From an uncultured delta proteobacterium (GTDB taxonomy: Bacteria > Desulfobacterota > Desulfobacteria > Desulfobacterales > CAWEAR01), in NCBI GenBank assembly GCA_963806835.1, contig CAWEAR010000013.1, positions 16,901 through 80,900 of the forward strand: a stretch of 64,000 nucleotides of DNA, written 5' to 3'. The position numbers and the translations under genes were made by a program. The notes under the pieces are model-generated. The model was not told where the DNA came from and did not search any database. It saw only the letters and a program-made list of their open reading frames with translations. The stretch's first letter is position 1; each line of letters opens with the position of its first letter. Shown here one piece after another: positions 1,997 to 59,598 of the stretch.

Positions 1997-2066
1997 AAAC
2001 CTAACCCCCTGCCCCCTTCCCTGAAAGGAAGTGGGAAATATGCAGGGGCGAATAATTATTCGCCCT
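1997..2066. repeat. Family-5 element (AACCTAACCCCCTGCCCC..TTCCCTGAAAGG) plus the palindrome GGGCGAATAATTATTCGCCC
   Basis: An inverted partner lies at 701-745 on the other side of the M16 gene. A full palindromic copy is at 16327-16410, and a related palindrome is at 18074-18103. Confidence 0.7.
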
Positions 2067-4358: not shown

Positions 4359-4424
4359 GGTTCGTAGTACCGCATTTATGCGGTTATTCACGCCCACCGC
4401 CTGAAGGCGGTACTACAAACTCTT
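4359..4424. repeat. Family-1 REP-like double hairpin in the rpsO-pnp intergenic leader
   Basis: GTTCGTAGTACCGCATTTATGCGGT...ACCGCCTGAAGGCGGTACTACAAAC: two hairpins in an inverted arrangement. Confidence 0.8.
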
Positions 4425-6716: not shown

Positions 6717-9660
6717 TTACTGTTCACTGATAACCGGCTTAATTTCTTCCATATAATAGCATTCGATAACATCGCCGAGCTTTATATCATTGTAATTTTC
6801 AATTCCTATTCCGCATTCATAACCGCTTATAACCTCTTTGACATCATCTTTGAATCGCCGCAATGAACCGAGTTTACCGTCAAAGATAACAACCCCTTCT
6901 TCTGAGAAGTCGAACAAGCTGTCCTCTCTGAATTTTTCCGTCTGTTACATAACATCCTGCAATGGCACCTATTTTTGGAACATGAAAAACTTCCCGCACA
7001 TCAGCTCTTCCCAAAATCCGTTCTTCATAAGTTGATTTCATCATTCCGACAATAGCATCCTGAATATCCTTTATAACATTATAAATAATATTATAAAAAC
7101 GGATGTCAACATGCTCTTCATTTGCAATTGTCTGAACTTTTGGAGTGGGTCTGACGTTAAAGCCGATAATAATTGCATTTGATACAGCAGCAAGCGAAAC
7201 ATCCGATTCAGTAATTGTGCCGGTTGCCGAATGAATTATATTGATGTTTACTTCCTTATTGGAAAGTTTGATAAGCGAATCTCTGATAGCTTCAATAGAA
7301 CCGTGAACATCAGCCTTGATAATCAGATTAAGGTCCTTTACTTCACCCTGCTGCATCTTTTCAAACAGCTTTTCAAGGCTTATTCTGCTTGTTTTTGCAA
7401 GGTCTATGGAACGCTGTTTCTGTATACGGTGCAGACTCACCTGTTTTGCGCTTCTGTCATCCGACACAGAGACTAACTCATCTCCGGCGTTAGGTACCCC
7501 TGATAATCCCAGAATCTCTATAGGAACTGACGGACCTGCTGCATCAACCTGAACCCCTCTGTCATTCAGCATGGCGCGAATCTTTCCGTGATGTATGCCG
7601 CACACCACTGCATCCCCTGCGCAAAGGGTACCATCCTTTATAAGAACTGTGGCAACAGGACCTCTGCCGGAGTCTAATTTTGCCTCAACCACATAACCCG
7701 CTGCTGGTTTATCATGATTAGCTTTTAATTCAAGCACCTCTGACTGAAGAAGGATCATTTCAAGGAGCGTATCAATCCCTATATTCTGCTTTGCAGAGAC
7801 TTTGACAAAAATCGTCTCGCCTCCCCAGTCCTCCGACATAAGTCCATGTTCGGAAAGTTCACGATATACCCGATCAATATTTGCATTGTTTTTATCAATC
7901 TTATTGACGGCAACGATTATCGGAACCCGGCGGCTCTGGAATGATTGATAGCCTCTACGGTCTGAGGCATAACGCCGTCATCAGCCGCTACAACCAGTAC
8001 AACTATATCTGTTACCAATGCTCCTCTGGCACGCATAGCTGTAAAAGTCTTCATGCCCCGGTGTGTCCAGAAATGTAATCTGCCCTCTTTCTGTTGAGAC
8101 ATTATATGCGCCGATATGCTGTGTGATTCCGCCTGCTTCATTTTCAGTTACCCTGGTTTTCCGAATGACATCTAAAAGAGATGTTTTACCGTGATCTACA
8201 TGCCCCATGATTGTTACTACAGGTGCCCGCCATGTCATATTTTCAGGCACATCTTTTTCACTCATTTTCAGAAAACTGTTTTCTTCAAAAGATGCTTTCT
8301 CCACTTCATAATTAAATTCCGCTGCCACTGACGCTGCTATATCAAAATCTATGGTCTGGTTGACAGTTACCATCACCCCCAGCCCCATCAGTTTAGCAAT
8401 CATCTCAGCGGCTTTTATACCCATCCGTTTTGCCAGATCCGAAAGAACAATAGTATCATCTATTTTTATCCTTCGCTTAATTGCCTTGGGTGTTGTTATC
8501 TGTGGCTTCTGGTTCTGAACAGTTGTTTTGACCTTTTGATTTTTACGCGATTTTTTTCCACGCCCGCCGTAAAGCTCATCTCCTTCAACAACCTCTTTCC
8601 GTTTAAATGAGATTTTCTTTTTCGCCCAGCGAATCTCTTTCGGTTTTTTATCATCGCTGACGGATTCTGTAATTACGCCAACCTCTTTTTTCCGTTTCTT
8701 TTTATACTTATCTGCTGTTTCAGACAAATCTTTCGGGGGTATCTGCTCGGCTGTTACAGGTCTGACACTTGAACTATCTTTGGAACCTGAACCGTCTATA
8801 GGATGACGACGAGGTTCCGGTCTCCGTTTCCCATGAAATTCTCTGTTATCTTTTACATGGACAACAGTTTCCGATGTTGCTGTCTTTTTAGCAGCCGGAG
8901 CCTTTGCAGACAATTGGGATTCCTCGTTCAGAGACGGCAATTTTATAATTCTTGCAGGCGTATCTTTTCTTCGCCGTTTTCTTTTTCTTGATTTTTTAGC
9001 TTTGAGATCAGCGGGGGATAACGGATGATCAGACTTCTTTTGTGACGGATATGGAGAATCTTTTCTCTCTTTGCCATCCGAAGTATTCCCCGATGATTCA
9101 GAACCTCTTTTATTATTGTTCCTCTCTTTTGATAAGGCTGAAGGAGATACTGCTTTTACCGGAGTATCAAAATTTGGAACCTTTTTTTCCACCGGCTCAC
9201 TTTTTTCGGGAAACCTTTGCTTCCCGTCCTTTTGTTCTGCAAACCCTTTTTTTTCAAAAGATTTATTCTTGTATTCAGATGGTTCTCTTTCCCTTTTTAT
9301 AAAATTGGGAAGAATTTTTTCAGAAGGCGATCTTTCATTAATCGGATCATTGCCTCCGACTCCGGTATTACTTTCCTTTTCCGAATAAGATTCTGTTACG
9401 CCTGTATCTTTCTGCTCTTCAGATAAAACAGATTTCTTATGAATAAACTTTTTGCGTCTTCGGATAACAGTTTTTTTGTCACGTGTTTCATCCGGAGCAT
9501 CTTTGCCAAGAAGATTTGCCCTGATTTTTGATACAGTTTCATCATCCAGAGAACTCATATGGCTCCTTACCACGATATCCATTTTACCCAGTTTTTCAAG
9601 GAGTACCCTGTTTTTCATATTAAGATCCTTGGCAAGCTCATATACTCTGATGTTTGCCAT
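6717..9660 (-). CDS. infB: Translation initiation factor IF-2, spread over four ORFs by three frame breaks (about 8040, 7925 and 6900)
   Basis: N-terminus [13 protein letters not shown], then a long K/E/S-rich linker and a G domain: [18 protein letters not shown](D)F then TAMRARGA in the next frame, then NKIDK. The C-terminal domains run through ...[23 protein letters not shown]. One break is at the G run CCGGGTTCC near 7925. Confidence 0.9.
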
Positions 9661-9804
9661 CCATTCCCCCTTCATTAGCTGCCGGTTTTAGCGGTACAGA
9701 ACAAAAATAAAATTTTTACACTCCTGCAAAAATAAAATTTCTGCACTCCCTGACTAATCGCCATTTTTTTTTGTTTCATCATTATCTGCTGCATTTTCAG
9801 GCAG

Positions 9805-10149
9805 ACCGCCTTTAGGCGGAACCACTGCACCGCCTAAAGGCGGTACTACGGACAAAGACTTAGCACCGCCTGAAGGCGGTACTGCGGACAAAGACTCAGC
9901 ACCGCCTGAAGGCGGTACTGCGGACAAAAACTAGCACCGCCTGAAGGCGGTACTGCGGACATAGACTCAGCACCGCCTGAAGGCGGTACTGCGGACATAG
10001 ACTCAGCACCGCCTGAAGGCGGTACTGCGGACAAAACTGGCACCGCCTGAAGGCGGTACTGCGGACATAGACTCAGCAACGCCTTCAGGCAGTGCTGCGG
10101 ACAGAGACTCAGCACCGCCTTCAGGCGGTACTGCGGACAGAAGAGAAGA
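9805..10149. repeat. Tandem array of about 10 units (34-36 bp) derived from the Family-1 hairpin, spanning the nusA 3' end and the nusA-infB spacer
   Basis: Cores ACCGCC-NNNN-GGCGGT start at 9815, 9839, 9875, 9911, 9946, 9982, 10018, 10052, 10088 and 10123. The unit is CACCGCCTGAAGGCGGTACTGCGGACAAAGACTCAG and translates on the minus strand as SAVPPSGGAESM. Confidence 0.9.
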
Positions 10150-11457
10150 TAAAGGTTCTTCAGTCGGTTCATCAGGACTCAGATTTGAATCAGCAGCACC
10201 GTCTAAAGGCGGTACTGCAAATTTTTGGCTTGAACCGGCGGTTAAAGAAATAAGTTTTTCAGCATCTTCTCCGGTTATACCCATAGAATGAACAAGATCA
10301 TCCGCTGAAGCTTTGCTGATCTCTTCAGCAGAGAAAAAACCGTGTTCATATAAAGAATCAGCCATACTGATGCTCATTCCGGGTAATTCCATCAGAGAAT
10401 TGTATGCATTCTGCATGGTTTTATTGTACTGATTTTCATTCTTCACATCAAGACGCCATTTTGTCAGTCTGGATGCCAGTCTGACATTTTGCCCGCCTTT
10501 GCCGATAGCAATGGAGAGAAATTCATCAGGAACAATAACTTCCATGGAACGGTTATCTTCGTCAATAATCACTCTTGAAATTTCAGCCGGAGCCAGAGCG
10601 CTGCATACAAATTTTGCAGGATCAGAATGCCACGGAATAATATCTATTTTTTCACCTCTAAGCTCCTGAACAACACTCTGTACCCGGCTCCCTTTCATCC
10701 CTACACATGCGCCTACCGGGTCTATATCAGCGTCATTTGAAACCACAGCAATTTTTGAACGGCTTCCGGGATCACGGACAACTCCCATTATATTAACAAT
10801 CCCTTCACTGATTTCAGGTACCTCTGTTTTAAAAAGGCTTACCAGAAATTCAGGATGAGACCTTGAAAGAATTACCTGTGGACCCCGTGAGTCATGACGG
10901 ACATCCATAATGTATGCTCTTATGCGGTCTCCGCGGCGGTAGGTCTCTTTTGCGACCTGCTCTTTTTCCGCCATAATTCCTTCTGTCTGCCCCAGACTGA
11001 CAATAATATCATTCCGTTCAAATCTCTGAACAATACCGTTTATGATTTCACCTTTTCTGCCGATAAAACCGGAATAGACTGTATCTCTCTCCGCCTCTTT
11101 CATTTTCTGAATGATAACCTGTTTTGCGGACTGTGCGGCAATTCTTCCGAAAGTGCCGGTATCTGTTTTTATACCGATACTGTCGCCGATTTCACATTCA
11201 GAATCGAGCTTTTTACCTTCTTCAAGAGACATCTGAAGCTCCGGCTCGGTAATCACTTCTGCAACCTCTTTGAACTGAAAAACTTCAATTTCGCCGCTCT
11301 CTTCGTTGTATTTTACTTCAATATCAATTTTATTTCCGAATTTTTTTTTCGCAGCAGATTTTATCGCCTCTTCAACCGCTTTTATAAGGAGATTGCTGTC
11401 AATCCCTTTATCACGGCTGACCTGCTCGACAACGCGTTTCACATCTTTTATAAGCAT
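10003..11457 (-). CDS. nusA: Transcription termination/antitermination factor NusA with a repeat-derived C-terminal tail
   Basis: The N-terminal domain, S1, two KH domains (GACVGMKGSRVQSV, AIGKGGQNVRLAS) and an HhH region are all recognisable. The last approximately 60 codons lie inside the 36-bp array. Confidence 0.9.
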   Translation of the reverse strand: MLIKDVKRVVEQVSRDKGIDSNLLIKAVEEAIKSAAKKKFGNKIDIEVKYNEESGEIEVFQFKEVAEVITEPELQMSLEEGKKLDSECEIGDSIGIKTDTGTFGRIAAQSAKQVIIQKMKEAERDTVYSGFIGRKGEIINGIVQRFERNDIIVSLGQTEGIMAEKEQVAKETYRRGDRIRAYIMDVRHDSRGPQVILSRSHPEFLVSLFKTEVPEISEGIVNIMGVVRDPGSRSKIAVVSNDADIDPVGACVGMKGSRVQSVVQELRGEKIDIIPWHSDPAKFVCSALAPAEISRVIIDEDNRSMEVIVPDEFLSIAIGKGGQNVRLASRLTKWRLDVKNENQYNKTMQNAYNSLMELPGMSISMADSLYEHGFFSAEEISKASADDLVHSMGITGEDAEKLISLTAGSSQKFAVPPLDGAADSNLSPDEPTEEPLSSLLSAVPPEGGAESLSAALPEGVAESMSAVPPSGGASFVRSTAFRRC

Positions 11458-11579
11458 CTGTTTTTTTTCCTGTATTTTTATAATATCATCCTGAAATCAT
11501 CACAGCACAGATCAGATTAAAAAAACAGATCTGCATATTATAATTGAAAAATTTCCGGCTCATAAATCATGATCTGCTT

Positions 11580-12145
11580 TCATAAAGACTGATAATTGAC
11601 CAGCCGGGCTTTGGTGATTTCCTGAAAAGGAATGGAGATAATTTTTTCATTAACTTTAATAAAAACAGTCCCTTCCGATATTCCCTGTAAAACGCCGTGA
11701 AATTTTTTCTGCCCTTCAATCGGCTTAACTGTCCTGATTTTTGCAATATTACCCTTAAATTTTTCAAAGTCTCCCTCCTTTCCCAAAGGACGGTTTATCC
11801 CCGGTGAAGATACTTCCAGAGAATATCCGACATCAGGCATTGTAATACAGACATCTAAAAGATCGTCTAATTGCCGGCTGATACGGACGCAGTCATCTAA
11901 TAAAACACCTCCGGGCTTGTCTATATAAAGACGGAGAACTCTCCCCCGGGTTCCCGCTGATATTCCACATGAACCAGTTCCATCCCCTCAGATTCACATA
12001 ATGGCTCGGCTATCAGTCTGATATCGTCAGTCTTTATGACGGGGGTCCTGTTTTTTTCAGCAGAAACAACCGGAGCATTTATTCCATTCTCTTTTACCGG
12101 AGGTCTCTCTTTTTTTATATCCGGTTTTTTTCTTTTTGAACTCAT
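11580..12145 (-). CDS. rimP: Ribosome maturation factor RimP, two ORFs with one frame break (about 11850-11940)
   Basis: IAEPLCESEGMELVHVEYQREPGG(.)VLRLYIDKPGG continues into ...YSLEVSSPGINRPL...FKGNIAKIRT. The gene lies upstream of nusA, as is canonical. Confidence 0.8.
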
Positions 12146-12390
12146 TTTCTTATGGTATCCTGAAAAAATAAAAAACGGGCAGATGCCCGTTTTACACTCA
12201 GTAAACCTTTTGTCGCGGATATTGAATAGTTATCTGTTCATAAAAATAACCGTACGAAAAAAATAATCGCAATTCACTCTTAATAATCTTCTTCATTTTT
12301 CAGAATGTCGGGTTACGCTCCGCTACGTGAAAAATGATAAAAGAGAGAAAGATTTACCTAAACCGCATCTGCTTCCGAAGAATCTGAAAC

Positions 12391-12459
12391 AAAAGCTCGT
12401 AGTACCGCCTTTAGGCGGTTGACGTGAATAACCGCCTAAAGGCGGTACTACGAACTTTT
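12391..12459. repeat. Family-1 REP-like double hairpin
   Basis: AAAGCTCGTAGTACCGCCTTTAGGCGGT-TGACGTGAATA-ACCGCCTAAAGGCGGTACTACGAACTTTT. Confidence 0.85.
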
Positions 12460-12502
12460 ACAAGTTTCCGATCTGCTTAACATATCTGCTGTAAAAAAAA
12501 TT

Positions 12503-12578
12503 TGGAGCGGGCAACGAGATTCGGACTCGCGACCCCAAGCTTGGGAAGCTTGTGCTCTACCAACTGAGCTATGCCCGC
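12503..12578 (-). tRNA. tRNA-Gly (anticodon CCC), CCA encoded
   Basis: The reverse complement GCGGGCAUAGCUCAGUUGGUAGAGCACAAGCUUCCCAAGCUUGGGGUCGCGAGUCCGAAUCUCGUUGCCCGCUCCA folds as a cloverleaf: 7-bp acceptor, 4-bp D stem, anticodon stem CAAGC/GCUUG with loop UUCCCAA, and discriminator U73 typical of Gly. The T-loop reads UCCGAAU instead of UUCGAAU (C at position 55). Confidence 0.85.
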
Positions 12579-12594
12579 TTGCAAGTTTCATACT

Positions 12595-12622
12595 ATTTAT
12601 GATAAAAAAATTTTTTTGTCAA
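12595..12622 (-). promoter_or_regulatory. Candidate sigma70-type promoter for tRNA-Gly
   Basis: On the minus strand: TTGACA (12622-12617), a 16-nt spacer, then ATAAAT (12600-12595), about 16 nt upstream of the tRNA 5' end. Confidence 0.4.
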
Positions 12623-12650
12623 TATTTTTAATTGTAAATTTATAACCCTT

Positions 12651-12680
12651 TTGACAACCCGGTATAAAGTAGCGTATGAT
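12651..12680 (+). promoter_or_regulatory. Candidate sigma70-type promoter for mltG
   Basis: TTGACA (12651-12656), an 18-nt spacer, then TATGAT (12675-12680), about 100 nt upstream of the TTG start. A GGAG Shine-Dalgarno lies at 12768-12771. Confidence 0.4.
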
Positions 12681-12780
12681 ATTGGGAATCGGTAATGCTG
12701 TCAAAGGCGGGCTGCCAAGTTTCAGAGACTTGGGAACTCTTTAAGCATATTAACCAAATATAAAAAACGGAGAAATAAAA

Positions 12781-35319: not shown

Positions 35320-38300
35320 CTAATCCGCTGTTTTTCTCAGAACGTATAGCAGATCTTCAATTCCGATCTGCATATCGCCGTTCACATCGGCGCTTATGCA
35401 GATTTCTCCGGCAGATATTCCTGTCATGAGCTTCATCACATCAACTGCATCCTTCAGATTCACCTCTCCGTCCCCGTTCACATCCCCGTAATCACATGCT
35501 TCATGAATTACGCCGATGGCTTCAAGGTCAAAGCCTGCACGGGACAGGGTTCTGTAATAATAGGCATCGTAAATGATATTCCCGTGACTGTCCGTATCTT
35601 TTCCGTAAACAGCGTCTGAGATTCTTACATGGGTTATTCTTTTCAGATTCACAGTTCCGTTTTCCGTTTCCGGTTTTCCCGAAAGCCGGGACAGATCAAA
35701 GGCGGTTCCGTAGCCTGTTCTGTATTTTCCCGCAAATCCGTCAATCTTTGAGGAATCAACAGCGCCGAAACTTTCAGGGGTGTTGAGAGATACATTGTCA
35801 AAACGGATAAAATTCAAGCCGTCAGATGAAACTTCAACAAAAGCAAGGTCAAGAGCCGTATCATTGAAATTCTCCGCGAACACGGCAAAATCATATCCGG
35901 CTCCGTCTGTGACCGGATGCCTGAATGTCAGAACAATTGAACCGCCTGTTCCCAGAGAAACAAAGCCGGATGACTGATCCGCATCTGCTTTGCCTATTGC
36001 ATTTTCAGGTTTTTTAAACCTGTCAGATGAGAAATCTTTTCCGTATTTCACAGCTTCATAGCCTGTTGCCCATGACTTCAGCAGGGAGGAATCTTTATGA
36101 ATTCCGTCAGAGCCTGTTTCAGTATAAGCTGTTGTGAATACAGCATCCGCGCCGTAACTGATAATGCCGTTCTTTTTTGTAACCAGCCGGTAATGATACT
36201 CTGTATTTTCATTCAGGTATTCAAGGTATTCATTTACATAAATATTGTCATAACCCGCACCGGCAAAGATTTCAGGGGTTGTCATTCCGTAATCTTCCGT
36301 TGTTCCGTATTCAAACCAGTATGTCGCCTGAGAACCCTGCGGATTCAGGATTCCGTTCAACTGGGCGGTTGTAAAGCTGATTCCCGAAGGCGTGCAGGTT
36401 GCATACGGTATGATTAAAGAAATATCCGCTTCCGAATTATCCGTTTCCGTGACAGCATCATTTGTGCCGTTTCCGTCTGTGTCATATTTCAGAATCCCCT
36501 CTCCTGCCTTTATTTCTCCGGCATCAGCAGGCAGAACTTTACCGGAAATATCAGCCTCGGCTCTGAAGACGATTTTCACATCCCCGCCCGCAGGGATTGT
36601 TATCCCTGTAATGCGGAGATTAGGAAAATCCTGATCCGCAATGCTTCCGTCCGGAATAATCAGACTTCCGGGAACATAATCCGCAAATCCGGGTACGGTG
36701 TCTGAATATTCAGCATCTTCAATAACATATCCGCTTTCATTTTTCAGAATAACCGTATATTCAATCTCATCCCCGGAAAATACGCTGCTTCCGTCTGTAT
36801 TTACAGCGGTCTTGACCGCCGCAACCTGAATCTTTCCGCCGTTCACCATGATCTGCGCAGGCTGATTTCCCGGCTCATCAGGATTGCCGTCTGTCTCTCC
36901 GGTTGTATCATTTACCCCGTCACCGTCCGAATCATAAGAGACCGTCCCCGGTATATCCGTAATGATCTGCCCGAAATTCACGCCTGTATCCGCAGTTGTA
37001 TCATAGCTGATTTTCACTGTTCCGTCAGGAGGAATATTGCCTGTCCATTCAAGCTGATTCATCTCTTCATTGTAAACAATTTCACCTGAATCTGTTTCCG
37101 CACTGCCCGGAATGTATGTCATATAAGGGGGCAGGGAAAAAGAGCTGTAACGCCGGATGCTGTTCTGTCTCCTGTATTTGCAATAACCGCACTGTGCCGC
37201 AGCGTATCTCCGGGAGTTGTTTTTCCGTCATTATCCGTGTCATAATGCAGAGTCACGCTTTTTGTGATTCCGGTCAGTTCCGGTGCGGTTGTCAGCATGA
37301 CCGTGATTTTTACCGTTGCAGTATCTGATTCTGAAATTCCGTCAGATACTTTATATTCAAAACCGTCTTCCCCGAAATAATCTGTGTCGGGGGTATAGAC
37401 AAATGAACCGTCTGCATTTAACGTAAGTTTGCCGTGTGCAGGATCGCTTATTTTTACAGCAGTCATCTCCTGTTCATCAGGATCCGCGTCATTTGCAAGC
37501 ACGCCCGGTTTTTCAACGGTCAGAACCGTATCCTCTTCAACAGTATAAACATCGCCTACGGCAACAGGCGTGTCATTCACTTCAAGGACTGTTACTGTAA
37601 CTGTTGCAGTCCCGGAATCTGCTGAACCGTCATTTGCCCTGTAAGTGAAACTGTCCTCTCCTGTATAATTGGCATCAGGTGTATAGACAAACGAACCGTT
37701 TTCATTCAGTTCAAGTTTTCCGTATTCAGGATCCTTTACCCTTACCGCTTTGAGCAGATTTTTATCAGTATCCGTATCATTCGTAAGAACACCCGGAGCC
37801 GTAATTGTCAGGATATTGTCTTCCGCAACTTCATATTTATCGTCATCTGCTGCCGGAGCGTCATTCACGGGATTGACCGTGATATTTACAGTTGCGGTGC
37901 CTGAATCGGCAGAACCGTCATTTGCTTTATAGGTAAAGCTGTCCGCGCCGCTGTAATCAGCGGAAGGCTTATAGACAAATGATCCGTCAGCTTTCAAACC
38001 GAGCGTTCCGTGAGAAACGCCGTTTATCAGAACTGCGGTTAAAGTATCTCCTTCAATATCAGTGTCATTTAGAAGGAGATTGCCGTTCAGTTCCGTATCC
38101 TCATCTGTGCTGTATATGTCGTTATTCGCAACAGGCGTATCATTTACCGGATTTACCGTTACTGTGAAAGCTGTTTCAGCAAAAAGTCCGCCTGAATCAG
38201 TTCCGCGCACCGTGATATTTACGGCTCCGTTTCCGTTTGCAGTATATGCAAGGGTAAGATTACCGCCTGAAATACCTGTGCTTACCAGTCCGGGATTTGA

Positions 38301-41300
38301 ATTTGACTGAACTGAATAAACAAGACCTGCTGCGCCGCTTTCAATGTCGTTAAATGAAGTCAGCAGGTTAATCACTGTATTTGCAGAATCTTCATTTACT
38401 GTTACGTTTGAAATGCCTGATGTTGACGGATTGTCATTTACCGCATTTACCGTTACCGTGAAAGCCGTTTCTGCAAAAAGCCCGCCTGAATCGGTTCCGC
38501 ACACCGTGATATTTGCGGTTCCGTTTCCTTTTGCAGTGTATGCAAGGGTCAGATTACCGCCTGAAATATCTGTATTTACCAGAGACGGATTTGAATTTGA
38601 CTGAACAGTGTATGTAAGCCCTGTTCCGTCTTCAATATCGCTGAACGAGGTCAGCAGATTAATCACGGTATTTGCAGAATCTTCGTTTACCGTAACATTG
38701 GAAATGCCTGATGTTGAGGGATTGTCATTTCCTGCATTTACCGTTACCGTGAAAGCCGTCTCTGTAAAAAGCCCGCCTGAATCAGTTCCGCGCAACGTGA
38801 TATTTGCAGTTCCGTTTCCGTTTGCAGTATATGCAAGGGACAGATTACCGCCTGAAATACCTGTACTTATCAACGCGGGATTTGAATTTGACTGAACCGA
38901 ATAAACAAGCCCGGCTGCGCCGTCTTCAATATCGTTAAATGAAGTCAGCATGTTAATCACTGTATTTGCGGAATCCTCATTTACCGTTACGTTTGAAATG
39001 CCCGTTGTTGTCGGCGTGTCATTTCCCGCATTCACCGTTACCGTAAATGTTGTCTCTGCAAAAAGCCAGCCTGAATCGGTTCCGCGCACCGTGATATTTG
39101 CCGATCCGTTTCCATTGGCAGTATAAGCAAGGGTAAGATTACCGCCTGAAATTGACGCATTTGCCAGTCCGGGATTTGAATTTGACTGAACTGAATAAAC
39201 AAGCCCGGCTGCGCCGTCTTCAATATCGCTGAATGAAGTCAGCAGGTTAATCACGCTGTTTGCAGCATCTTCATTTACCGTAACATTGGAAATTCCCGTT
39301 GTCGCGGGATTGTCATTTACTGCATTTACCGTTACCGTGAATGTTGTTTCAGCAAAAAGCCCGCCTGCGTCTGTTCCTCTTATCGTGATATTTGCGGTTC
39401 CGTTTCCATTGGCAGTATAAGCAAGGGTAAGATTACCGCCGGAAATACTTATGCTTACCAGTCCGGGATTTGAATTTGACTGAACTGAATAAACAAGCCC
39501 GGCTGCGCCGTCTTCAATATCGTTAAATGAAGTGAGCAGGTTAATCACGCTGTTTGAAGAATCTTCATTCACCGTAACATTGGAAATTCCCGTTGTTGCG
39601 GGATTGTCATTTACCGCATTCACAGTTACCGTAAAAGCTGTTTCAGCATAAAGCCCGCCTGAATCAGTTCCGCGCACCGTGATATTTGCGGTTCCGTTTC
39701 CATTGGCAGTATAAGCAAGGGTAAGATTACCGCCGGAAATACTTATGCTTACCAGTCCGGGATTTGAATTTGACTGAACTGAGTAAACAAGCCCGGTTCC
39801 GTCTTCAATGTCGTTAAATGAAGTCAGCATGTTAATCATGCTGTTTGAAGAATCTTCATTCACCGTAACATTGGAAATTCCCGTTGTAGCGGGATTGTCA
39901 TTTACTGCATTTACAGTAACTGCAAGGTTGAACGTATTGCTGTCTGCCGCACCGTCATTCACTTTTACCGGAACTGTGAGCGTTCCGTTGTAATTTGCAG
40001 ACGGTGTTACTGTATTTCCTGAAACTGTGTAATTCGTGCCGTTCTGAACTGTCAGACTGAAGCCGGTGGGATAAGTATTGTCAACATCGGTAACTGTCAG
40101 ATTGCCCAATGCAATTGTCAGAGCATTGTCTTCATTTACGCTTAACGCACTCTGTCCGGTTATCACAGGCGCGTCATTTACCGCATTCACTGTTACCGTA
40201 AAGGTTGTTTCGGTAAAAAGCGAATCCGGATCTGCCGCTTTTACTTTGATGGTTGCCGTACCGCTTCCATTGGCGGTATATGCAAGCACCAGATTCTGAT
40301 TTCCTGTGATACCTGTACTCACAAGACCTGTGTTTGTGTTCTCTGTTACAGAGTAAGTCAGAGCGGAATCCGCGCTTTCCGTATCTGCAAAAGAGAGCCA
40401 CAAATCAATGGTTGTATTTGCCGCATCCTCATTTACCGTTACATTGGAAATGCCGGTTGTGGTCGGAGCGGTGTTTGTAATAATTTCAATATCGCTGCTG
40501 TCTGCTAAAGACTGCCCCGCGGGAATTGTCATAACAGCATCATTGCCTGCCGCGTCTTTCAGTGTTGCACCGGCTGCCGGAACCAGAGGAGAAGCCGAGT
40601 TCAAATCCGTGCTGTTATGCCCTGCGGCAACCGTATATGTTGCAGAGGCTGTATTTGCCGGACCGAAAGGCGTGATAACCGCTGTTCCGCCTGTGTCAAG
40701 ATTTACCGTGAGATTTCCGAGTGCAAGGCTTACATTTTCAGAGAAATTCACGGTGATATTGATCGCATCGGCAAGTCCGTAAGTTGCATCTGCTGTGGTT
40801 GAAGTTACAGAGGCAACAGCCGGCGCCGTGATGTCATACGTCCGGGAAAGAGCGGTTGCCGCAGTGCTGTTATTGCCTGCGCTGTCCTGAGCAACATTTG
40901 CCGGAATATTCACAGTTACCGCGCCTTCTGCCGCAGGCGTTACATCAAATGTATAGGAAGCTCCCGAACCTGCAAAATTGCTTACAGAGCAGTTGGTTAC
41001 GCTTATATCCGTGTCTGCAAAGCCGGTTACGGATTCGGAAAATGTCGCTGTTACGCTGAACGGAGATATGTTTGTGGGATTTGACGCCGCGCTGGAAAGT
41101 GCAACAGTCGGCGCGGTCTTGTCAATTGTGTAAGTCTGCCCTGTGAAATTTCCGTTGCCTGCGCCTGCTCCGCCGAGAGGAACGCTCATTCCGTTGACAA
41201 TACTGTCATTGTCTGTGAGATTCAGACCCAGCGTGCCGTCTCCGGTGATAGTGTTCACTGTTACGGTTATGCTTGTGCCGGATGCCGCAGAAACAGAGGC

Positions 41301-43373
41301 TATTGTTCCGGATGCCGTTCCGGTTGTTGCCAGCGTAAAATCTCCGGTGTCAATGCCGGAAACGCTTTCATTAAAGGTTACGGTGAAATCCACACTTGCC
41401 GCATTGGTCGGTGAAGCTCCGGCACGGTTTATTGAAGATACCGAAGGCGGCGGCGGTGAATAGGTTACGGTGTTGTCTGTTGAAGTTGAAGCCGCGCCGG
41501 TGTTGCCTGCGCTGTCTGATACAACGCCCGCAGCGATTGATGCAATAACCGTTCCCGCTGATGTCATGCCTGAAACAGCCACATTGTAAGTTGTCCCGCT
41601 TCCGGTTACAGTTCCGGTTGTTGCGCCCGCAGTTCCGCTGAAGTGTTACATCTCCGGTTGCAAAGCTGGTTAAGGATTCGCTGAAAACAACCGTGAAATT
41701 AACCGGCGAACTGTTTGCCGGGTCTGCCTGTGATGATTCCTGATTGACGGTAACAGTCGGCGAAACGGTGTCAACAGTAAATGCACTCACTGCCAGATCG
41801 CCGGACGCATTGCCTGCGGTGTCTGTTACGCTGATTTCGCAGTTACTGTGCGCTCCGTCTGCCAGTGTGCCGAAGGTTATGGTATTATTGCCGATCACCG
41901 CTGCGGTGGTGGCGGAAGAACAGTCGCCGCTGTAACTAATCGTGCCTGCCTCTGTGCTGGAAAATGTATAATCCGGCGTGGCGTCATTGCCGGGAGTGGT
42001 TACTGCGGTAACTTCCGCCAAGGTCGGGGCGGTTGTGTCAATCACAATTGCCTTGTTTGCGCCCAGGGAACGACTGCGCCCGGTGCGGGAAGGGTGAGGT
42101 CGGCATCAAACGTGCCTGCGAGATTCTTTATTGTTCCGCCGTTCAAGGCAAATGCGGCGGTTGAAATATAATCCAAATCTGCGCTGGTATGACCTGCGGC
42201 TGCGGCTACCGTGTAGGTAAAGGTAAGTGTGGCTGTGCCGGAGCCGGATGTGTAATTCACAACCGCATCCGTTGTGCCGGTTTCCAGCGTGAGCTGCGGG
42301 GTACCGCCGCTTACATTCACAGCCTCGGAAAAGGTGACGGTGACAGAAACCGTGTCGCCTGCGTTGTATGAACCGTTGGCAGTTGAAGCACTCACAGAGG
42401 AGACAGTCGGGGCAGCAGGCGTCCCCGTGCCGTTCAGCGTAACCGTGTAGGGATTCTCATCACTGTCATTGTTGGCAATGCTGATCTGTGCGGTTTTCGC
42501 TGCGGCGGAAGACGGCGTGAATGTTACCGTGAAGTTCGTACTCCCCGAACCAGCGACCGGCGTGGTTGTCGAAGTCTCATTCACCGTGAAATCCGCCGCA
42601 TCCGTGCCGGATATGGCAATCTTCGGTGTTCCGCTCAGAGTCAGATTCGCAGAGCCGGTGTTCTGGATGGTGAACCCGTATGCCCCGCTGTTGCTGCCCA
42701 CAGCCACGCTTCCGAAATCGTGAGAACCGGCAGAGGCAATGTTGGTTGCGCCTGCTTCAGATTGATTTCCTGAGCCGCCGGCGGAATACATGTTACTCCG
42801 GTTACTGTACTGCTGCCGCAATTATTCACCGTGATAGCAGGCGAGATGGTTCCTGTTCCCGCAAAACTCACGGGATTAGCCGCCGTACCGTCGAGGTTGA
42901 AAGTCCCGCCTGCTGCTTTGGTCACTGTTTTACCGGCATTGATGGTCAGAGTGCGGGCTGCTGTCAGAGGCGTTGCCCACTGCCAGTTGTACAGGGTGAA
43001 ACTGCTGTTCACCGTGTGATTCGCATCACTGAATTTTACCGTGCTTGTACCTGCGTTGAATGTGCCGTCATTTTGAAGGGGTGTGGCACCGCTCAGGGTG
43101 ATGGTGTAACTGCCGGCGTTCAGGGTGGAGGAGGAATCAATTTGAATAGAGGAAACAGAAATATCCGAATCTGCGGTTACAATAGATAAAAAGAAATTCT
43201 GTGCGTCATCACTGCTGCCCGGGAAGACGACCGGCACCACTGCAACTACTCCATAGTACGCTATTATTCCAATTTCCGATAGACAAAAAAGTATTGCAAG
43301 CCATCGCCCCACCACCAATACATATAAATCCCCATAGCATTACTGTCAGTGCAATAAAATATTTTTTTTTCAT
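35320..43373 (-). CDS. Giant secreted repeat adhesin (about 2,680 codons if contiguous), present as six frame-shifted pieces
   Basis: - Signal peptide [23 protein letters not shown] from the ATG at 43373 (own translation).
- ORF pieces 42641..43318, 42042..42821, 41371..42045, 37119..41582 and 35320..37122 continue one another across each break. For example, FATGDVTL runs into [29 protein letters not shown], and [11 protein letters not shown] runs into [11 protein letters not shown] inside a DUF11-like repeat.
- Domains: choice-of-anchor-D-like, Ig-like, 97-99-aa tandem repeats, cadherin-like/VCBS-type repeats, DUF11-like, FN3-like, and a dockerin-like tail [12 protein letters not shown]...[17 protein letters not shown]. 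Confidence 0.8.
37293..38144 (-). repeat. Three approximately 95-aa cadherin-like/VCBS-type repeats inside the adhesin
   Basis: [33 protein letters not shown]....HGTL.L.ADGSFVY.P.ADY.G.DSFTY.ANDG...S..ATV.ITV occurs three times. Confidence 0.75.
38145..39902 (-). repeat. Six near-identical tandem coding repeats (291-297 bp; 97-99 aa) inside the adhesin
   Basis: The unit is [35 protein letters not shown](AA)[62 protein letters not shown] diverged seventh copy starts near 40478. Confidence 0.9.
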
Positions 43374-53755: not shown

Positions 53756-56700
53756 CATCCGATGTGTATAATTCATAATAAAAATGAAACTCATAAAAAA
53801 ACTTCCCGACCCCCTGTTAAATGAATGTCAAAAAAAATGGGATGAATTCTGTACAGCTTCAAAAGAAGCAAAGATTCCCCTGCCAAATAATCCTGAATTA
53901 ATAGAGATTATTCAGCAAGTCTTTACATTCAGCGATTTTGCTGCAAAGAGCTGTATCCGTCATCCTGAGATACTGTATGATCTTATTCAAAGCAATGATC
54001 TTCAAAGGGAATACCGGACAGATGAATATTATCATATTATTCAGTCTCATATTGCTGATATAAAAAATGAAGCAGAACTCAGCCCGATTCTCCGCAAAAT
54101 CAGGTGCCGTGAAATGGTACGCATTGCCTTCCGCGATCTTGCCGGGTGGGCGGATTTATCAGAGACAATGACAAATCTTTCAACATTTGCAGATGCCTGT
54201 ATTGATAAGACGCTTTCCTGTCTGTATGATCTGCACTGCTCAGAATACGGCATTCCGGTTGACGCAGACGGCTCTCAACTTTATCTTGTTGTTCTTGGCA
54301 TGGGAAAACTGGGCGCGTGGGAACTGAATTTCTCTTCAGATATTGATCTGATCTTTGCCTACGGAGCAGGCAACAATGAACACACCCTGCACCCTGCGAC
54401 CTGCACCCTGCAACCCGAATCCTTCTTCACCCGCCTTTGCCGTCAGCTGATAAATATACTTGGCGCAAAAACCGCTGACGGAATTCTCTTCAGGGTAGAT
54501 ATGACCCTCCGCCCTTTTGGAGAGAGCGGTCCTTTGGCAATGAATTTTGATGCAATGGATGAATATTATCATATACAGGGGAGAGAATGGGAGCGGTATG
54601 CGTGGATCAAAGCAAGAGTCGCGGCAGGGAACAAAACAGCCGGTGCAAATCTTCTGAAACGCCTGAATCCGTTTATTTACCGCAGATACCTTGATTTCGG
54701 CGTATTTGAATCCCTCAGAGATATGAAATATAAGATTTCCCTTGAAGTCAAACGTAAAGGGGTGAAAGGTAATATAAAACTTGGAGCAGGCGGAATACGT
54801 GAAATTGAATTTTTCGGACAGATATTTCAACTGATCCGGGGCGGCGTTGAAGCAGGGCTTCAGGAACGTCCGATTCAGAAAGTCCTGAAGATTCTTGCTG
54901 AAGATGGGCATATTGAACAGGATATCTGCGATGAGCTTACAGCCGCTTATATATTTTTAAGAAACACGGAACACAGGTTGCAGGAATTTGCAGATCAGCA
55001 GACACACAAACTCCCGACTGATCCGCTGGAACAGGCTCGCCTTGCCGCATCTATGGGATTTGAGGATTGGGATAAATTTATCTCTGAAGTGATTCTCCAC
55101 CGTAAAACCGTTCACCATCATTTCAACAGATTGTTGGAAGCAAAAAATCCGGAAAATTCAGATGAAAAACAGAACAGCAAATTAAAGATGTTATGGCAGA
55201 ATCCCGCAGATAATGAATATAATCACAAGATACTTTCTGCTCTCGGTTTTTACAACAATTCAGGCGAGGTATTGAGGCTGCTTGATTCTTTTCAGAAAGA
55301 TGCGGCAATACGGAATTTAAGCAAAGAGGGGTGGGAGTCGCTTGACCGGCTGATTCCTCTTGTATTGCAGACTGTCAGTACCTCTGAGCATCCTCTGCTT
55401 GCTTTAAGCCGTATTATTGATCTGCTCAAAAGTATTCAGCGGCGCATTACATATCTCTCTCTTTTACTGGAAAATCCGTCTGTTCTTACGCATTTAGTCA
55501 ATCTTGCCAATGCAAGCTCATGGATATTATCTTTTCTGACCCGTCATCCGGTTCTTCTGGATGAACTACTTGATCCCCGTACTCTTTATCTTCCGCCCAA
55601 ACGATCCGAGCTGGAAAAAGAATTGCGTCACCGCCTTGAGCAGATTTTGCCTGATGATCTGGAATATCAGATGGAAGTGCTGCGTATATTCAAACAGGTG
55701 AATATCCTGCGGGTTGCCGCGGCAGATATTACAAATGCCCTTCCCTTGATGAAAGTGAGCGATCATTTGTCTGATATTGCAGAGACTATTTTAAATGAAG
55801 TGGTTCATCTGTCATGGCATTATCTTGTTGAAAAACATGGAGAACCGGAATGTTATCTCCCTTGTTCACAGACTCACGGATGTGAACGGAAAGATACCTG
55901 TGATAAAGGATTTGTCGTAATTGCTTACGGAAAGCTCGGAGGGCTTGAACTCGGATATAATTCCGACCTTGATCTTGTTTTTCTTCACGCGGGAACAAAG
56001 GAGCAGACAAAAGGGGGAGAGCGCCCTGTTGATAATTCTCAGTTCTTTGCGCGGCTTGGACAGCGTGTTATTCATATTCTGACTCCTCATACTTCCGCGG
56101 GTATCCTGTATGAAACTGATATGAGACTGCACCAAGCGGAAATGCCGGGCTTCTGGTCTGTCATATTGATTCATTTAAAGAATATGAAATGCAGAAAGCA
56201 TGGACATGGGAGAAACAGGCTCTGATAAGGGCAAGGGCAATTATCGGGGATTCCCGCCTGATTGCTTATTTTGAAGATATAAGAAAAGAAGTCCTTGCAC
56301 AGCCCCGTGTCAAATCTGAACTTCAGGATGAGGTAAAATCAATGCGACATAAGATGCGGAAAGAGCTTTCATCCTCTGTTCCGGGAATTTTTGATCTCAA
56401 GCAGGATGAAGGGGGGATTGTAGATATTGAATTTTTAGTTCAGTATCTGGTTTTATTACACGCACATCAGCATCCTGAACTTTTAAAACGGACTGATAAT
56501 GTCCGTCTTCTCGGGAACTCTGTCAAAAACCGGCGTTCTGGATGAGAATACAGCTTATTTTCTCAGGGTTGCTTATCTGACATACAGAACAACGGGGCAT
56601 AAACTGAGTCTTCAGAAACAACCTGCAAAAACGCCTGAAAAACAGTTCAGCAAACATCCGATGTGTATAATTCATAATAAAAATGAAACTCATAAAAAAA

Positions 56701-59553
56701 CTTCCCGACCCTCTGTTAAATGAATGTCAAAAAAAATGGGATGAATTCTGCACGGCATCAAAAGAAGCAGATATTCCCCTGCCGGAGAATCCTGAATTAA
56801 TAGAGATTATTCAGAAAGTCTTTACATTCAGCGATTTTGCTGCAAAGAGCTGTATCCGTCATCCTGAGATACTGCATGACCTTATTCAAAGCAATGATCT
56901 TCAAAGGGAATACCGGACAGATGAATATTATCATATTATTCAGTCTCATATTGCTGATATAAAAAATGAAGCAGAACTCAGCCCGATTCTCCGCAAAATC
57001 AGGTGCCGTGAAATGGTACGCATTGCCTTCCGCGATCTTGCCGGGTGGGCGGATTTATCAGAGACAATGACAAATCTTTCAACATTTGCAGATGCCTGTA
57101 TTGATAAGACGCTTTCCTGTCTGTATGATCTGCACTGCTCAGAATACGGCATTCCGGTTGACGCAGACGGCTCTCAACTTTATCTTGTTGTTCTTGGCAT
57201 GGGAAAACTGGGCGCGTGGGAACTGAATTTCTCTTCAGATATTGATCTGATCTTTGCCTACGGAGCAGGCAACAATGAACACACCCTGCACCCTGCGACC
57301 TGCACCCTGCAACCCGAATCCTTCTTCACCCGCCTTTGCCGTCAGCTGATAAATATACTTGGCGCAAAAACCGCTGACGGAATCCTATTCAGAGTTGATA
57401 TGACCCTCCGCCCGTTTGGAGAGAGCGGTCCCGTGTCAATGAGTTTTGATGCAATGGATGAATATTATCATATACAGGGGAGAGAGTGGGAGCGGTATGC
57501 GTGGATCAAAGCAAGAGTCGCGGCAGGGAATAAAAGAGCCGGAGCAAATCTTCTGAAACGCCTGAATCCGTTTATTTACCGCAGATACCTTGATTTCGGC
57601 GTATTTGAATCCCTCAGAGATATGAAATATAAGATTTCCCTTGAAGTCAAACGTAAAGGGGTGAAAGGTAATATCAAACTTGGAGCAGGCGGAATACGTG
57701 AAATTGAATTTTTCGGACAGATATTTCAACTGATCCGGGGCGGCGTTGAATCAGGGCTTCAGGAACGCCCGATTCAGAAAGTCCTGAAGATTCTTGCTGA
57801 AGATGGGCATATTGAACAGGATATCTGCGATGAGCTTACAGCCGCTTATATATTTTTAAGAAACACGGAACACAGGTTGCAGGAATTTGCAGATCAGCAG
57901 ACGCACAAACTCCCGACAGATCCGCTGGAACAGGCTCGCCTTGCCGCATCTATGGGATTTGAGGATTGGGATAAATTTATCTCTGAAGTGATTCTCCACC
58001 GTAAAACCGTTCACCATCATTTCAACAGATTGTTGGAAGCAAAAGATCCGGAAAATTCAGATGAAAAACAGAACAGCAAATTAAAAATGTTATGGCAGAA
58101 TCCCGCAGATAATGAATATAATCACAAGATACTTTCTGCTCTCGGTTTTTACAACAATTCAGGCGAGGTATTGAGGCTGCTTGATTCTTTTCAGAAAGAT
58201 GCGGCAATACGGAATTTAAGCAAAGAAGGGTGGGAGGCGATTGACCGGCTGATTCCTCTTGTATTGCAGACTGTCAGTACCTCTGAGCATCCTCTGCTTG
58301 CTTTAAGCCGTATTATTGATCTGCTCAAAAGTATTCAGCGGCGCATTACATATCTATCTCTTTTACTGGAAAATCCGTCTGTTCTGACTCATCTGGTCAA
58401 TCTCGCCAATTCAAGCTCATGGATATTATCTTTTCTGACCCGTCATCCTGTTCTTCTGGATGAACTACTTGATCCCCGTACTCTTTATCTTCCGCCAAAA
58501 CGATCCGAGCTGGAAAAAGAATTGCGTCACCGCCTTGAGCAGATTTTGCCTGATGATCTGGAATATCAGATGGAAGTGCTGCGTATATTCAAACAGGTGA
58601 ATATCCTGCGGGTTGCCGCGGCAGATATTACAAATGCCCTTCCCTTGATGAAAGTGAGCGATCATTTGTCTGATATTGCAGAGACTATTTTAAATGAAGT
58701 GGTTCATCTGTCATGGCATTATCTTGTTGAAAAACATGGAGAACCGGAATGTTATCTCCCTGTTCACAGACTTCACGGATGTGAACGGAAAGATACCTGT
58801 GATAAAGGATTTGTCGTAATTGCTTACGGAAAGCTCGGAGGGCTTGAACTCGGATATAATTCCGACCTTGATCTTGTTTTTCTTCACGCGGGAACAAAGG
58901 AGCAGACAAAAGGGGGAGAGCGCCCTGTTGATAATTCTCAGTTCTTTGCGCGGCTTGGACAGCGTGTTATTCATATTCTGACTCCTCATACTTCCGCGGG
59001 TATCCTGTATGAAACTGATATGAGACTGCGCCCAAGCGGAAATGCCGGGCTTCTGGTCTGTCATATTGATTCATTTAAAGAATATGAAATGCAGAAAGCA
59101 TGGACATGGGAGAAACAGGCTCTGATAAGGGCAAGGGCAATTATCGGGGATTCCCGCCTGATTGCTTATTTTGAAGATATAAGAAAAGAAGTCCTTGCAC
59201 AGCCCCGTGTCAAATCTGAACTTCAGGATGAGGTAAAATCAATGCGACATAAGATGCGGAAAGAGCTTTCATCCTCTGTTCCGGGAATTTTTGATCTCAA
59301 GCAGGATGAAGGGGGGATTGTAGATATTGAATTTTTAGTTCAGTATCTGGTTTTATTACACGCACATCAGCATCCTGAACTTTTAAAACGGACTGATAAT
59401 GTCCGTCTTCTCGGAACTCTGTCAAAAACCGGCGTTATGGATGAGAATACAGCTTATTTTCTCAGGGTTGCTTATCTGACATACAGAACAACGGGGCATA
59501 AACTGAGTCTTCAGAAACAACCTGCAAAAACGCCTGAAAAGCAGTTCAGCAAA
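53756..59553 (+). repeat. Direct tandem duplication, 2 x 2,899 bp, covering glnE plus 28 bp of its upstream region
   Basis: Bases 53756-56654 are colinear with 56655-59553. The junction CAGTTCAGCAAA|CATCCGATGTGTATAATTC joins codon approximately 957 of copy 1 to the region upstream of copy 2, with AAA microhomology. Confidence 0.9.
53784..56655 (+). pseudogene. glnE: glnE copy 1: 3'-truncated by the duplication junction and interrupted by a -1 (about 56131) and a +1 (about 56515) frame break
   Basis: ORFs 53784..56225, 56189..56545 and 56499..56723 together are colinear with copy 2. Differences include CTGCACCAAGCGG vs CTGCGCCCAAGCGG and CTCGGGAACTCTG vs CTCGGAACTCTG. The pseudogene status is uncertain given the error-prone assembly. 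Confidence 0.55.
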
Positions 59554-59598
59554 TACCGGAAACAGGTTACTGATATTTGGAATACTTATATGGAATAG
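56683..59598 (+). CDS. glnE: Bifunctional glutamine synthetase adenylyltransferase/adenylyl-removing enzyme GlnE (copy 2, intact, 971 aa)
   Basis: Two nucleotidyltransferase domains (LGMGKLGAWELNFSSDIDLIF and AYGKLGGLELGYNSDLDLVF), plus DMRLRPSGNAGLLV. Length is typical for GlnE. Confidence 0.9.
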   Translation: MKLIKKLPDPLLNECQKKWDEFCTASKEADIPLPENPELIEIIQKVFTFSDFAAKSCIRHPEILHDLIQSNDLQREYRTDEYYHIIQSHIADIKNEAELSPILRKIRCREMVRIAFRDLAGWADLSETMTNLSTFADACIDKTLSCLYDLHCSEYGIPVDADGSQLYLVVLGMGKLGAWELNFSSDIDLIFAYGAGNNEHTLHPATCTLQPESFFTRLCRQLINILGAKTADGILFRVDMTLRPFGESGPVSMSFDAMDEYYHIQGREWERYAWIKARVAAGNKRAGANLLKRLNPFIYRRYLDFGVFESLRDMKYKISLEVKRKGVKGNIKLGAGGIREIEFFGQIFQLIRGGVESGLQERPIQKVLKILAEDGHIEQDICDELTAAYIFLRNTEHRLQEFADQQTHKLPTDPLEQARLAASMGFEDWDKFISEVILHRKTVHHHFNRLLEAKDPENSDEKQNSKLKMLWQNPADNEYNHKILSALGFYNNSGEVLRLLDSFQKDAAIRNLSKEGWEAIDRLIPLVLQTVSTSEHPLLALSRIIDLLKSIQRRITYLSLLLENPSVLTHLVNLANSSSWILSFLTRHPVLLDELLDPRTLYLPPKRSELEKELRHRLEQILPDDLEYQMEVLRIFKQVNILRVAAADITNALPLMKVSDHLSDIAETILNEVVHLSWHYLVEKHGEPECYLPVHRLHGCERKDTCDKGFVVIAYGKLGGLELGYNSDLDLVFLHAGTKEQTKGGERPVDNSQFFARLGQRVIHILTPHTSAGILYETDMRLRPSGNAGLLVCHIDSFKEYEMQKAWTWEKQALIRARAIIGDSRLIAYFEDIRKEVLAQPRVKSELQDEVKSMRHKMRKELSSSVPGIFDLKQDEGGIVDIEFLVQYLVLLHAHQHPELLKRTDNVRLLGTLSKTGVMDENTAYFLRVAYLTYRTTGHKLSLQKQPAKTPEKQFSKYRKQVTDIWNTYME

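Follow-up and report, generated by a model that had tools for sequence, protein, structure and literature searches.

The nusA gene of an uncultured delta proteobacterium (Desulfobacterales; contig CAWEAR010000013.1, positions 16,901 to 80,900, a stretch of 64,000 nt called the window in the following) contains in its 3' part a cluster in which a GTAG-type repetitive extragenic palindromic (REP) hairpin of the same genome, also referred to as REPIN (REP doublet forming a hairpin), is repeated head to tail. The cluster is probably tolerated selfish or slippage-driven DNA inside the sequence coding for the NusA tail, and is probably translated up to a TAG at 9754. Tandem Repeats Finder led to an array with a 36-bp period at 9827-10144 (8.9 copies, 90% matches, score 494), and splitting of the region on its palindrome, by which the unit boundaries were set, resolved 9805-10149 on the minus strand into nine head-to-tail units of 34-36 bp and a terminal inverted partial unit (Table 1). 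Both results agree with the roughly ten tandem copies given in a preliminary description of the window, whose last period of 35 bp has to be corrected to 36 bp. Every unit is built around ACCGCC-N4-GGCGGT, a 6-bp stem with a 4-nt loop; the loop is TGAA in the middle units, TAAA or TTTA at the distal end and TTCA in the two units nearest to the nusA body (10078 and 10114), where its inversion had already been noticed. On the sense strand the array reads (A/V)VPPxGG-AES-[ML]-S, and the repeated peptide announced for the minus strand was found as repeats of SAVPPSGGAESM/L. A 106-bp super-period was also called by the program in the array. A true higher-order repeat was considered; the super-period reflects short units at every third position, and at the sequence level it is inseparable from the possible assembly errors discussed below.

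The derivation of the unit from a REP-like family of the window, as proposed before, is supported by the shared palindrome and the shared head. With one mismatch at most, ACCGCC-N4-GGCGGT occurs 22 times in the window, compared with 0.03 times in shuffled sequences, and 12 of the 22 copies are intergenic, distributed over seven loci (450/522, 4396, 12404/12431, 22242/22270, 26812/26863, 30424/30475 and 33038), in line with the seven further occurrences of the core reported previously. The family unit of the GTAG-headed REP or REPIN is AAAGTTYGTAGTACCGCCTTYAGGCGGT. In head orientation the 11 intergenic heads gave the consensus AAAGTTYG-TAGT-ACCGCCTTYAGGCGGT, the tetranucleotide being GTAG in nine of them and GCAG and GTGG in one each. 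The nusA copies all have the same direction with the head on the sense strand (...TGTCCG-[C/T]AGT-ACCGCCTTYAGGCGGT) and show GCAG eight times and GTAG and GTGG once each; the isolated copy at 10198, also within the tail-coding region, has GCAG. Comparison of the array units, GTCCG[C/T]AGTACCGCCTTYAGGCGGT, with the intergenic copies, GTTYGTAGTACCGCCTTYAGGCGGT, revealed an identity reaching past the palindrome to the (G)YAGT head, with G-YAGTACCGCCTTYAGGCGGT common to both and 21-24 nt spanned in total. The isolated copy has retained the flank AAANTTTG-YAGT seen at the intergenic copies (its own flank is AAAATTTG-CAGT), and the 20-nt spacer of the array units is specific to them and was not found at the intergenic copies. 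Outward-headed inverted doublets are present at 12404/12431, 22242/22270, 26812/26863 and 30424/30475. The arrangement at 450/522 is more complex: this cluster, at 447-600 and 3' of an M16 peptidase gene, contains two head-type hairpins 72 bp apart with the conserved spacer CCGTGTGAAATCAGAC after each hairpin, decayed partner hairpins and a weak 36-bp repeat detected by Tandem Repeats Finder.

As the homologues of the protein are Desulfobacterales NusA and the order of NusA_N, S1 and two KH domains is present (Pfam), the identity of the gene body is clear. It is followed by a single HHH_5 match, a helix-hairpin-helix (HhH) domain at residues 354-403; a second HhH repeat, like acidic repeat 2 (AR2) of Escherichia coli NusA, was not found by Pfam, and the repaired tail had no Pfam match either. 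In the units nearest to the gene body the NusA frame reads SAVPPEGGAESL, SAALPEGVAESM and SAVPPSGGA. This frame is lost in the 34-bp unit and the stop at 10003 follows, so that the last 12 residues of the protein as assembled are out of frame. Three units on, the 35-bp unit shifts the frame back (2 + 1 = 3 nt), and the restored frame reads ...SAVPPSGGAESLSAVPPSGGAKSLSVVPPLGGAVVPPKGGLPENAADNDETKKNGD up to the TAG at 9754-9756, with ...VVPPKGGLPENAADNDETKKNGD as the end in frame 1. The repaired NusA has 568 residues and the C-terminal peptide LPENAADNDETKK. These translations support the earlier statement that the array forms the C-terminal tail of NusA, and translation in three frames bore out that only the 34- and 35-bp units break the frame. 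Two lengths require revision: the listed open reading frame (ORF) 10003..11457 enters the array for about 49 instead of about 60 codons, and perfect units would extend the tail by about 84 more codons to the TAG instead of about 50.

The one other member of the 90%-identity cluster of the window NusA, P0121 (526 residues), is encoded on a 5.7-kb contig (L081) of a metagenome of the Joint Genome Institute (JGI), which, in the conserved coding portions of rimP, nusA and infB, has 94-95% DNA identity to the window. Here nusA is uninterrupted and its tail reads ...SLSVVPPLGG MSVVPPLDG MSVVPPLGG MSVVPPLGG LPENTADNNETKKNGD up to the stop (C-terminal end VVPPLGGLPENTADNNETKKNGD), reflecting an array of 4 x 27 bp of the same hairpin with the peptide unit MSVVPPLGG (Tandem Repeats Finder, 2260-2366). 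The last 16 codons, the TAG and the first spacer bases are identical between L081 and the window frame ending at 9754. Translation of the L081 tail through the array to an orthologous stop indicates that the ancestral and normal state of this lineage is a NusA tail coding through the hairpins. The array had been described as filling the junction between nusA and infB, which does not hold, since in L081 the whole array is coding; the idea of a low-complexity tail of variable length fared better, as the length differs between these close relatives, L081 having 4 units of 27 bp and the window about 9 of 36 bp. The true spacer comprises about 93 nt, with the likely infB start at 9660 taken from the gene call in L081 (ATGGCAAAC). 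In the window it is filled by a 25-bp direct repeat (1.9 copies, 91% identical, 9702-9749; CAAAAATAAAATTTCTACACTCCTG), and at the equivalent place L081 has a different 7/14/21-bp repeat (ACTGTTCACTGATA), a difference indicating that the spacer, too, turns over by tandem duplication. The ORF 9846..10172 was rejected as a gene, being merely the out-of-frame middle of the same repeat frame. Programmed ribosomal frameshifting was also rejected: two shifts (+1-like and +2-like) would be needed, recognisable slippery sites are absent, and the intact L081 gene needs none.

The frame breaks in the array have counterparts in the neighbouring genes. infB (6717..9660, minus strand; window region 6717-9675) is broken by three 1-bp indels compared to the intact 1040-aa infB of L081, rimP (11580-12145) has one 1-bp frameshift, and another one in pnp (2056-4214) splits off the KH and S1 domains. 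Essential or housekeeping genes thus contain a further five frameshifts of 1 bp within 12 kb. Relative to L081, those in infB and rimP are GGGG to GGG, GGGGGG to GGGGG and two single-A insertions. From the indels in these three genes we infer that the contig contains systematic indel errors, and ORF boundaries in the window should be treated with caution. Within the array, A4/A5 runs are confined to the two short units, whose deficits total exactly 3 nt. In the sense direction these units read GCT-AGTTTTTG and GCC-AGTTTTG, and may be contracted forms of GCTAAGTTTTTG (G-A-K-F-L), a sequence separated from GCTAAGTCTTTG of the unit at 9829 by a single C-to-T change; the 35-bp unit would be consistent with a contraction of AA to A. 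On balance, a homopolymer-length assembly error seems the somewhat better explanation for the stop at 10003, which otherwise would be a very recent truncation. The 'junction' and 'overlapping ORF' elements may then be by-products of an error-prone assembly. Whether or not the frame breaks are real, the array originated as tail-coding sequence and for the most part remains so.

If the sequence is correct, NusA ends at 10003 after 484 residues, and the remaining 250 bp or so are an untranslated string of about six hairpins before infB. We regard this as a serious possibility, albeit not the likelier state of affairs. It takes the ORF as listed, and tail length is clearly dispensable across the homologues. 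Besides missing bases, the short units differ from the consensus by substitutions and thus may be real, and their resemblance to each other together with the 106-bp super-period would fit a duplicated real variant. With about 4 indels in 5.5 kb of the neighbouring genes, two within 320 bp are unexpected unless repeats were polished worse. Furthermore, in a more distant relative (L183; P0002, NusA with 83% amino acid identity) what is left of the ancestral tail end, CTGAAAACAGAGCAGATAATGATGAAA, is found 3' of the nusA stop and was cut off from the gene naturally, showing that such truncations occur in the clade. All of this weighs against an intact, translated tail, and two further points count against the reading as a whole: a HUH...Y motif as in REP-associated tyrosine transposases (RAYT) was not found in the window, by a regular-expression search only; and the stems of the array are stronger than the intergenic ones (10 bp compared to 6 bp), which could hint at selection for RNA or DNA structure. 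We nevertheless prefer a tail translated to 9754, given the five frameshifts in neighbouring genes, the deficits found only in homopolymer units and adding up to one codon, and the intact nusA of the 95%-identical L081 with the same stop.

Alternatively, the array could be kept for a function in RNA: its hairpins could block 3'-exonucleases, be processed by RNases or cause pausing or weak termination stimulated by NusA, and thereby set the nusA:infB expression ratio. REPs of E. coli stabilise upstream mRNA, and hairpin-dependent pausing and termination are enhanced by NusA, and this established knowledge speaks for such a role; we nevertheless consider it unlikely. Folding of the minus-strand transcript, a check suggested in the preliminary description, gave -253 kcal/mol for 9740-10220 with z = -14.2 compared to shuffles, and the RNA is thus very structured, but such scores come with any palindromic array. 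The array units fold at -15 to -19 kcal/mol, -19 kcal/mol being the value for the 10-bp stem with one G.U pair that exists only in the sense transcript, and an intergenic REP and the L081 unit, the latter with a 5-bp stem, fold at -10 kcal/mol. However, the G.U pair reflects a single event copied by duplication instead of independent covariation. Four loose matches to a terminator-like hairpin with a T-rich site were detected on the sense strand (1.3 +/- 1.1 in shuffles), but their tails, AGTCTTTGTC or AGTTTTTGTC, are interrupted or offset T-runs separated from the stems, and translating ribosomes would melt the hairpins. In addition, L081 has only four of the weaker hairpins at another spacing and L183 has none of this hairpin family. 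An Rfam search over 9300-12700 gave tRNA-Gly as the only hit to pass, STAXI reaching 27.5 bits against a threshold of 40.5. The fold and terminator figures do not separate a function from trivial effects of a palindromic array.

When metagenome contigs were scanned for at least three such hairpins at 24-38-bp spacing, 101 contigs matched. The matched contigs that were checked have 58-71% G+C, compared to 41% in the window, and on this basis were assigned to unrelated organisms; the unforced flank GTTYGKAGTY is present in nearly all matched contigs. The REP core thus seems to be common to very distant organisms. The array/tail junction pattern CCGCCTNNAGGCGGTCTGCCTGAAAA of the window had 0 matches in a separate metagenome scan. 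In about 12 matched contigs an ORF with HUH...Y motifs (HYHVLV...NYIHHNP) adjoins the arrays. The ORF in L120 (locus 1440-2350) matched Pfam Y1_Tnp (IS200-like) with 4.8e-7, above the cut-off, and is flanked on both sides by doublets or arrays of GTTTGGAGTACCGCCTTTAGGCGG...CCGCCTAAAGGCGGTACTCCGAAC. This flanking of Y1_Tnp genes indicates that the family is RAYT-associated elsewhere. Unit lengths divisible by three (27, 30, 33 and 36, four of the 13 possible lengths) were observed in 54 of 111 metagenome arrays, which were not dereplicated. In-frame arrays occur between a protein-kinase domain and WD40 repeats (L084), in the tail of DnaX (L112) and at the C-terminus of a molybdopterin enzyme (L130), and translate as DRLKAGLQTA, RPPEGGTPNEEG or VTPPSGGRS, depending on strand and frame. 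One may speculate that this widespread, RAYT-associated hairpin has repeatedly supplied the material for disordered tails and linkers of many proteins across distant phyla, and that the string of strong sense-strand hairpins in the nusA-infB operon was co-opted as NusA-sensitive pause, termination or stability elements tuning infB relative to nusA; taken together, this appears quite improbable to us.

Among other nusA genes the array is exceptional. A search of 80 nusA loci, from related as well as unrelated genomes (no relative among them closer than 75%), gave 0 copies of the palindrome, an exact match to the 484-aa NusA of the window is not on record, and a protein search with the repaired tail gave no significant hit among 8000 candidates, probably due to the low complexity of the query. 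The tails of 120 homologues comprise 24-153 residues after the HhH domain and are acidic and unalignable; several have tandem repeats of their own (P0072, P0020, P0107 and P0010). The window tail, with a net charge of -12, is a compositional outlier among them (Pro + Gly 30% compared to a median of 10%, Asp + Glu 12% compared to a median of 32%). In L081 eight copies of a second palindrome, GGTTCAAGTCTNAGACTTGAACC, read as GSSLRLEP and all lie inside genes, namely in the N-terminal extension and the C-terminal end of RimP, the NusA tail and the N-terminal region of IF2; it was not found in the window with up to three mismatches, except for a decayed remnant near 10160-10190. L183 contains three copies of a third palindrome, GAGTGCCAAAC-N6-GTTTGGCA: two (33 bp x 2, with a flipped loop) are part of the nusA tail, and the remaining one is in the spacer between nusA and infB. 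A perfect 35-nt palindrome is present on this contig twice in the 5' coding part of infB. Neighbouring genomes show the same colonisation by palindromes with other elements.

Taken together, the tail of NusA is presumably a region of low constraint, fast turnover and putative disorder that was colonised by palindromes. A REP copy would have been inserted into the hypervariable region after the single HhH domain and multiplied by replication slippage or unequal recombination among the palindromic units, with the frame kept only by unit lengths divisible by three (36 bp here, 27 bp in the other lineage). CCGCC-N4-GGCGG codes for Pro-Pro-x-Gly-Gly in one frame on either strand, so that each copy in frame lengthens the protein by flexible residues which break helices and may be tolerated in a putatively disordered tail. 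The insert would be a harmless, flexible peptide rich in Pro, Gly, Ser and Ala, and translation would include all units, continue into the ancestral acidic end LPENAADNDETKKNGD and stop at the TAG, giving a NusA of about 568 residues. Inversions of the loop exchange Ser for Glu and Leu for Lys regardless of chemistry, which fits palindrome dynamics at the DNA level better than selection on the peptide. A functional repeated peptide, e.g. a Pro-rich docking motif or a spacer of tuned length kept by protein-level selection, is very unlikely in our opinion: both the 27- and the 36-bp units keep the frame, VPPxGG is kept in both lineages and the tail is still net acidic, but VPPxGG is dictated by the conserved DNA palindrome, its x position flips among S, E, L and K, the motif was found in 0 of the 120 other homologue tails examined, and the search with the tail alone found nothing. 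That the whole array is an artefact of dispersed REP reads collapsed or concatenated on an error-prone contig, as repeats are hard to assemble, can hardly be reconciled with an independent JGI assembly in which this hairpin forms an in-frame array at the identical position, the unique orthologous sequence on both flanks and the array-specific spacer. The REP cluster is best seen not as a purpose-built device, but as an element that makes the length and composition of the tail vary between close relatives.

The REPIN concept is reportedly due to Bertels and Rainey, and Ogata et al. are said to have described, in 2000, Rickettsia palindromic elements (RPE) in frame in protein-coding genes as the classic case. 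GTAG-tagged REPs, their dimers and the link to the RAYT (TnpA_REP) tyrosine transposase have been described (Nunvar 2010, PMC2817692; Di Nocera 2013, PMC3733652), as have intragenic GTAG REPs, often in information-processing genes, and REP clusters coding for 43-82 residues (Di Nocera 2013, PMC3733652). A text search did not find NusA in the intragenic-REP supplementary tables of PMC3733652, and a string search for the hairpin or its peptides had no match in the literature. The window elements share with GTAG REPs and REPINs the GC-rich palindrome with a 6-bp stem and 4-nt loop, the GTAG (or GYAG/GTGG) tag at one end, the many dispersed, mostly intergenic copies, the outward-headed doublets and, in metagenomes, the flanking of Y1_Tnp. 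They differ in that nine or ten copies are arranged head to tail, a rare arrangement according to PMC3733652, inside a coding sequence and with a unit length divisible by three, and in that most array copies carry GCAG instead of GTAG and an extended 10-bp stem. As in intragenic REPs and RPEs, the palindrome lies inside an ORF with the frame kept (in L081 as it is, in the window after restoring 3 nt), and the insert is absent from orthologues and placed in a surface- or linker-like region of a housekeeping gene of information processing; the sequence family is different, the expansion is longer (an array of about 110 and a tail of about 165 residues), it is located at the C-terminus of NusA, and two genomes of 95% identity have different copy numbers and periods. 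E. coli NusA has the acidic repeats AR1 and AR2, the latter being a folded HhH domain. The tail described here resembles these and the tails of Desulfobacterales NusA in its position after the KH domains and an HhH module and in being net acidic, variable in length and putatively disordered, and other lineages of the order also expand the tail by tandem duplication. However, the tails of Desulfobacterales are rich in Asp and Glu (median 32%) and not derived from a genome-wide palindrome, whereas the window tail has 30% Pro/Gly and 12% Asp + Glu, and compared with E. coli an AR2-like domain is absent. Bacterial coding minisatellites (variable-number tandem repeats) are similar with respect to slippage-prone, in-frame tandem units and copy-number differences, but here the unit is a mobile REP hairpin with a strong palindrome and the host is a cytoplasmic, essential transcription factor instead of a surface protein. 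This kind of event is therefore already known, and the array is a new, rather large example in a hypervariable tail.

Further repeats were observed elsewhere in the window. A perfect (GAGT) x 27.5 microsatellite of 110 bp (43790-43899, 100% identity) overlaps short minus-strand ORFs and is a candidate for a slippage-prone (phase-variable) tract. A 294-bp unit is repeated 6.1 times with 86% identity at 38140-39914 within an ORF of 1487 codons (37119..41582, minus strand), which looks like a large repeat-domain protein. Identical short repeats about 2.9 kb apart (54383-54415 and 57282-57314; 56109-56129 and 59008-59028) fall in the adjacent large ORFs 53784..56225 and 56683..59598, which suggests a tandem gene duplication.

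Table 1. Features of the nusA region, REP loci of the window and related elements on other contigs.
Feature	Position	Strand	Details
nusA, structured part, aa 1-403	10249..11457	minus	Pfam: NusA_N 2e-35, S1, KH_5 3.8e-30, KH_1/KH_2, HHH_5 aa 354-403
nusA tail-coding region, reconstructed	9754..10248	minus	about 165 codons; ends at TAG 9754-9756
nusA stop as assembled	10003..10005	minus	484 aa; ORF list, three-frame translation
True nusA-infB spacer	9661..9753	minus	about 93 nt; infB Shine-Dalgarno GAAGGGGG
Array unit	start 9805		24 bp, partial; loop TTTA
Array unit	start 9829		36 bp; loop TAAA
Array unit	start 9865		36 bp
Array unit	9901..9935	minus	35 bp, one base short; sense GGTGCT-AGTTTTTGTCC; A5 on plus strand
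Array unit	start 9936		36 bp
Array unit	start 9972		36 bp
Array unit	10008..10041	minus	34 bp, two bases short; sense GGTGCC-AGTTTTGTCC; A4 on plus strand
Array unit	start 10042		36 bp
Array unit	start 10078		36 bp; loop TTCA; stem decayed, AACGCC...GGCAGT
Array unit	start 10114		36 bp; loop TTCA
Isolated, slightly decayed REP copy in nusA tail	10198..10225	minus	palindrome 10198-10213; aaaatttGCAGT-ACCGCCTTTAGACGGT; codes for KFAVPPLDG
Intergenic REP doublet, REPIN-like	12392..12458		upstream of rimP; GTAG heads outward
Other intergenic REP loci	450-537, 4396-4423, 22230-22297, 26800-26890, 30412-30502, 33038-33065
Second palindrome GGTTCAAGTCTNAGACTTGAACC in L081	117-139, 201-223, 261-283, 747-769, 2193-2215, 2907-2929, 3084-3106, 3384-3406
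Palindromes in L183	2291-2356, 2570-2596, 3025-3059, 3092-3126
Further contigs with HUH/Y1 ORF beside hairpin			L086, L119, L128, L146, L147, L148, L161, L166, L088, L117

For annotation, ORF breaks in hairpin arrays of this type should be taken neither for gene ends nor for intergenic 'junction' elements when the contig is error-prone. A long-standing question is not opened by the nusA array, but it provides a clean and datable case in which selfish palindromic DNA supplies over 100 residues to an essential transcription factor, with units of 27 and 36 bp and 4 and about 9 copies, respectively, in two genomes of 95% identity. This case lends support to the idea that REP-type elements can enter genes harmlessly at disordered tails and linkers, and that these elements create new low-complexity protein sequence.

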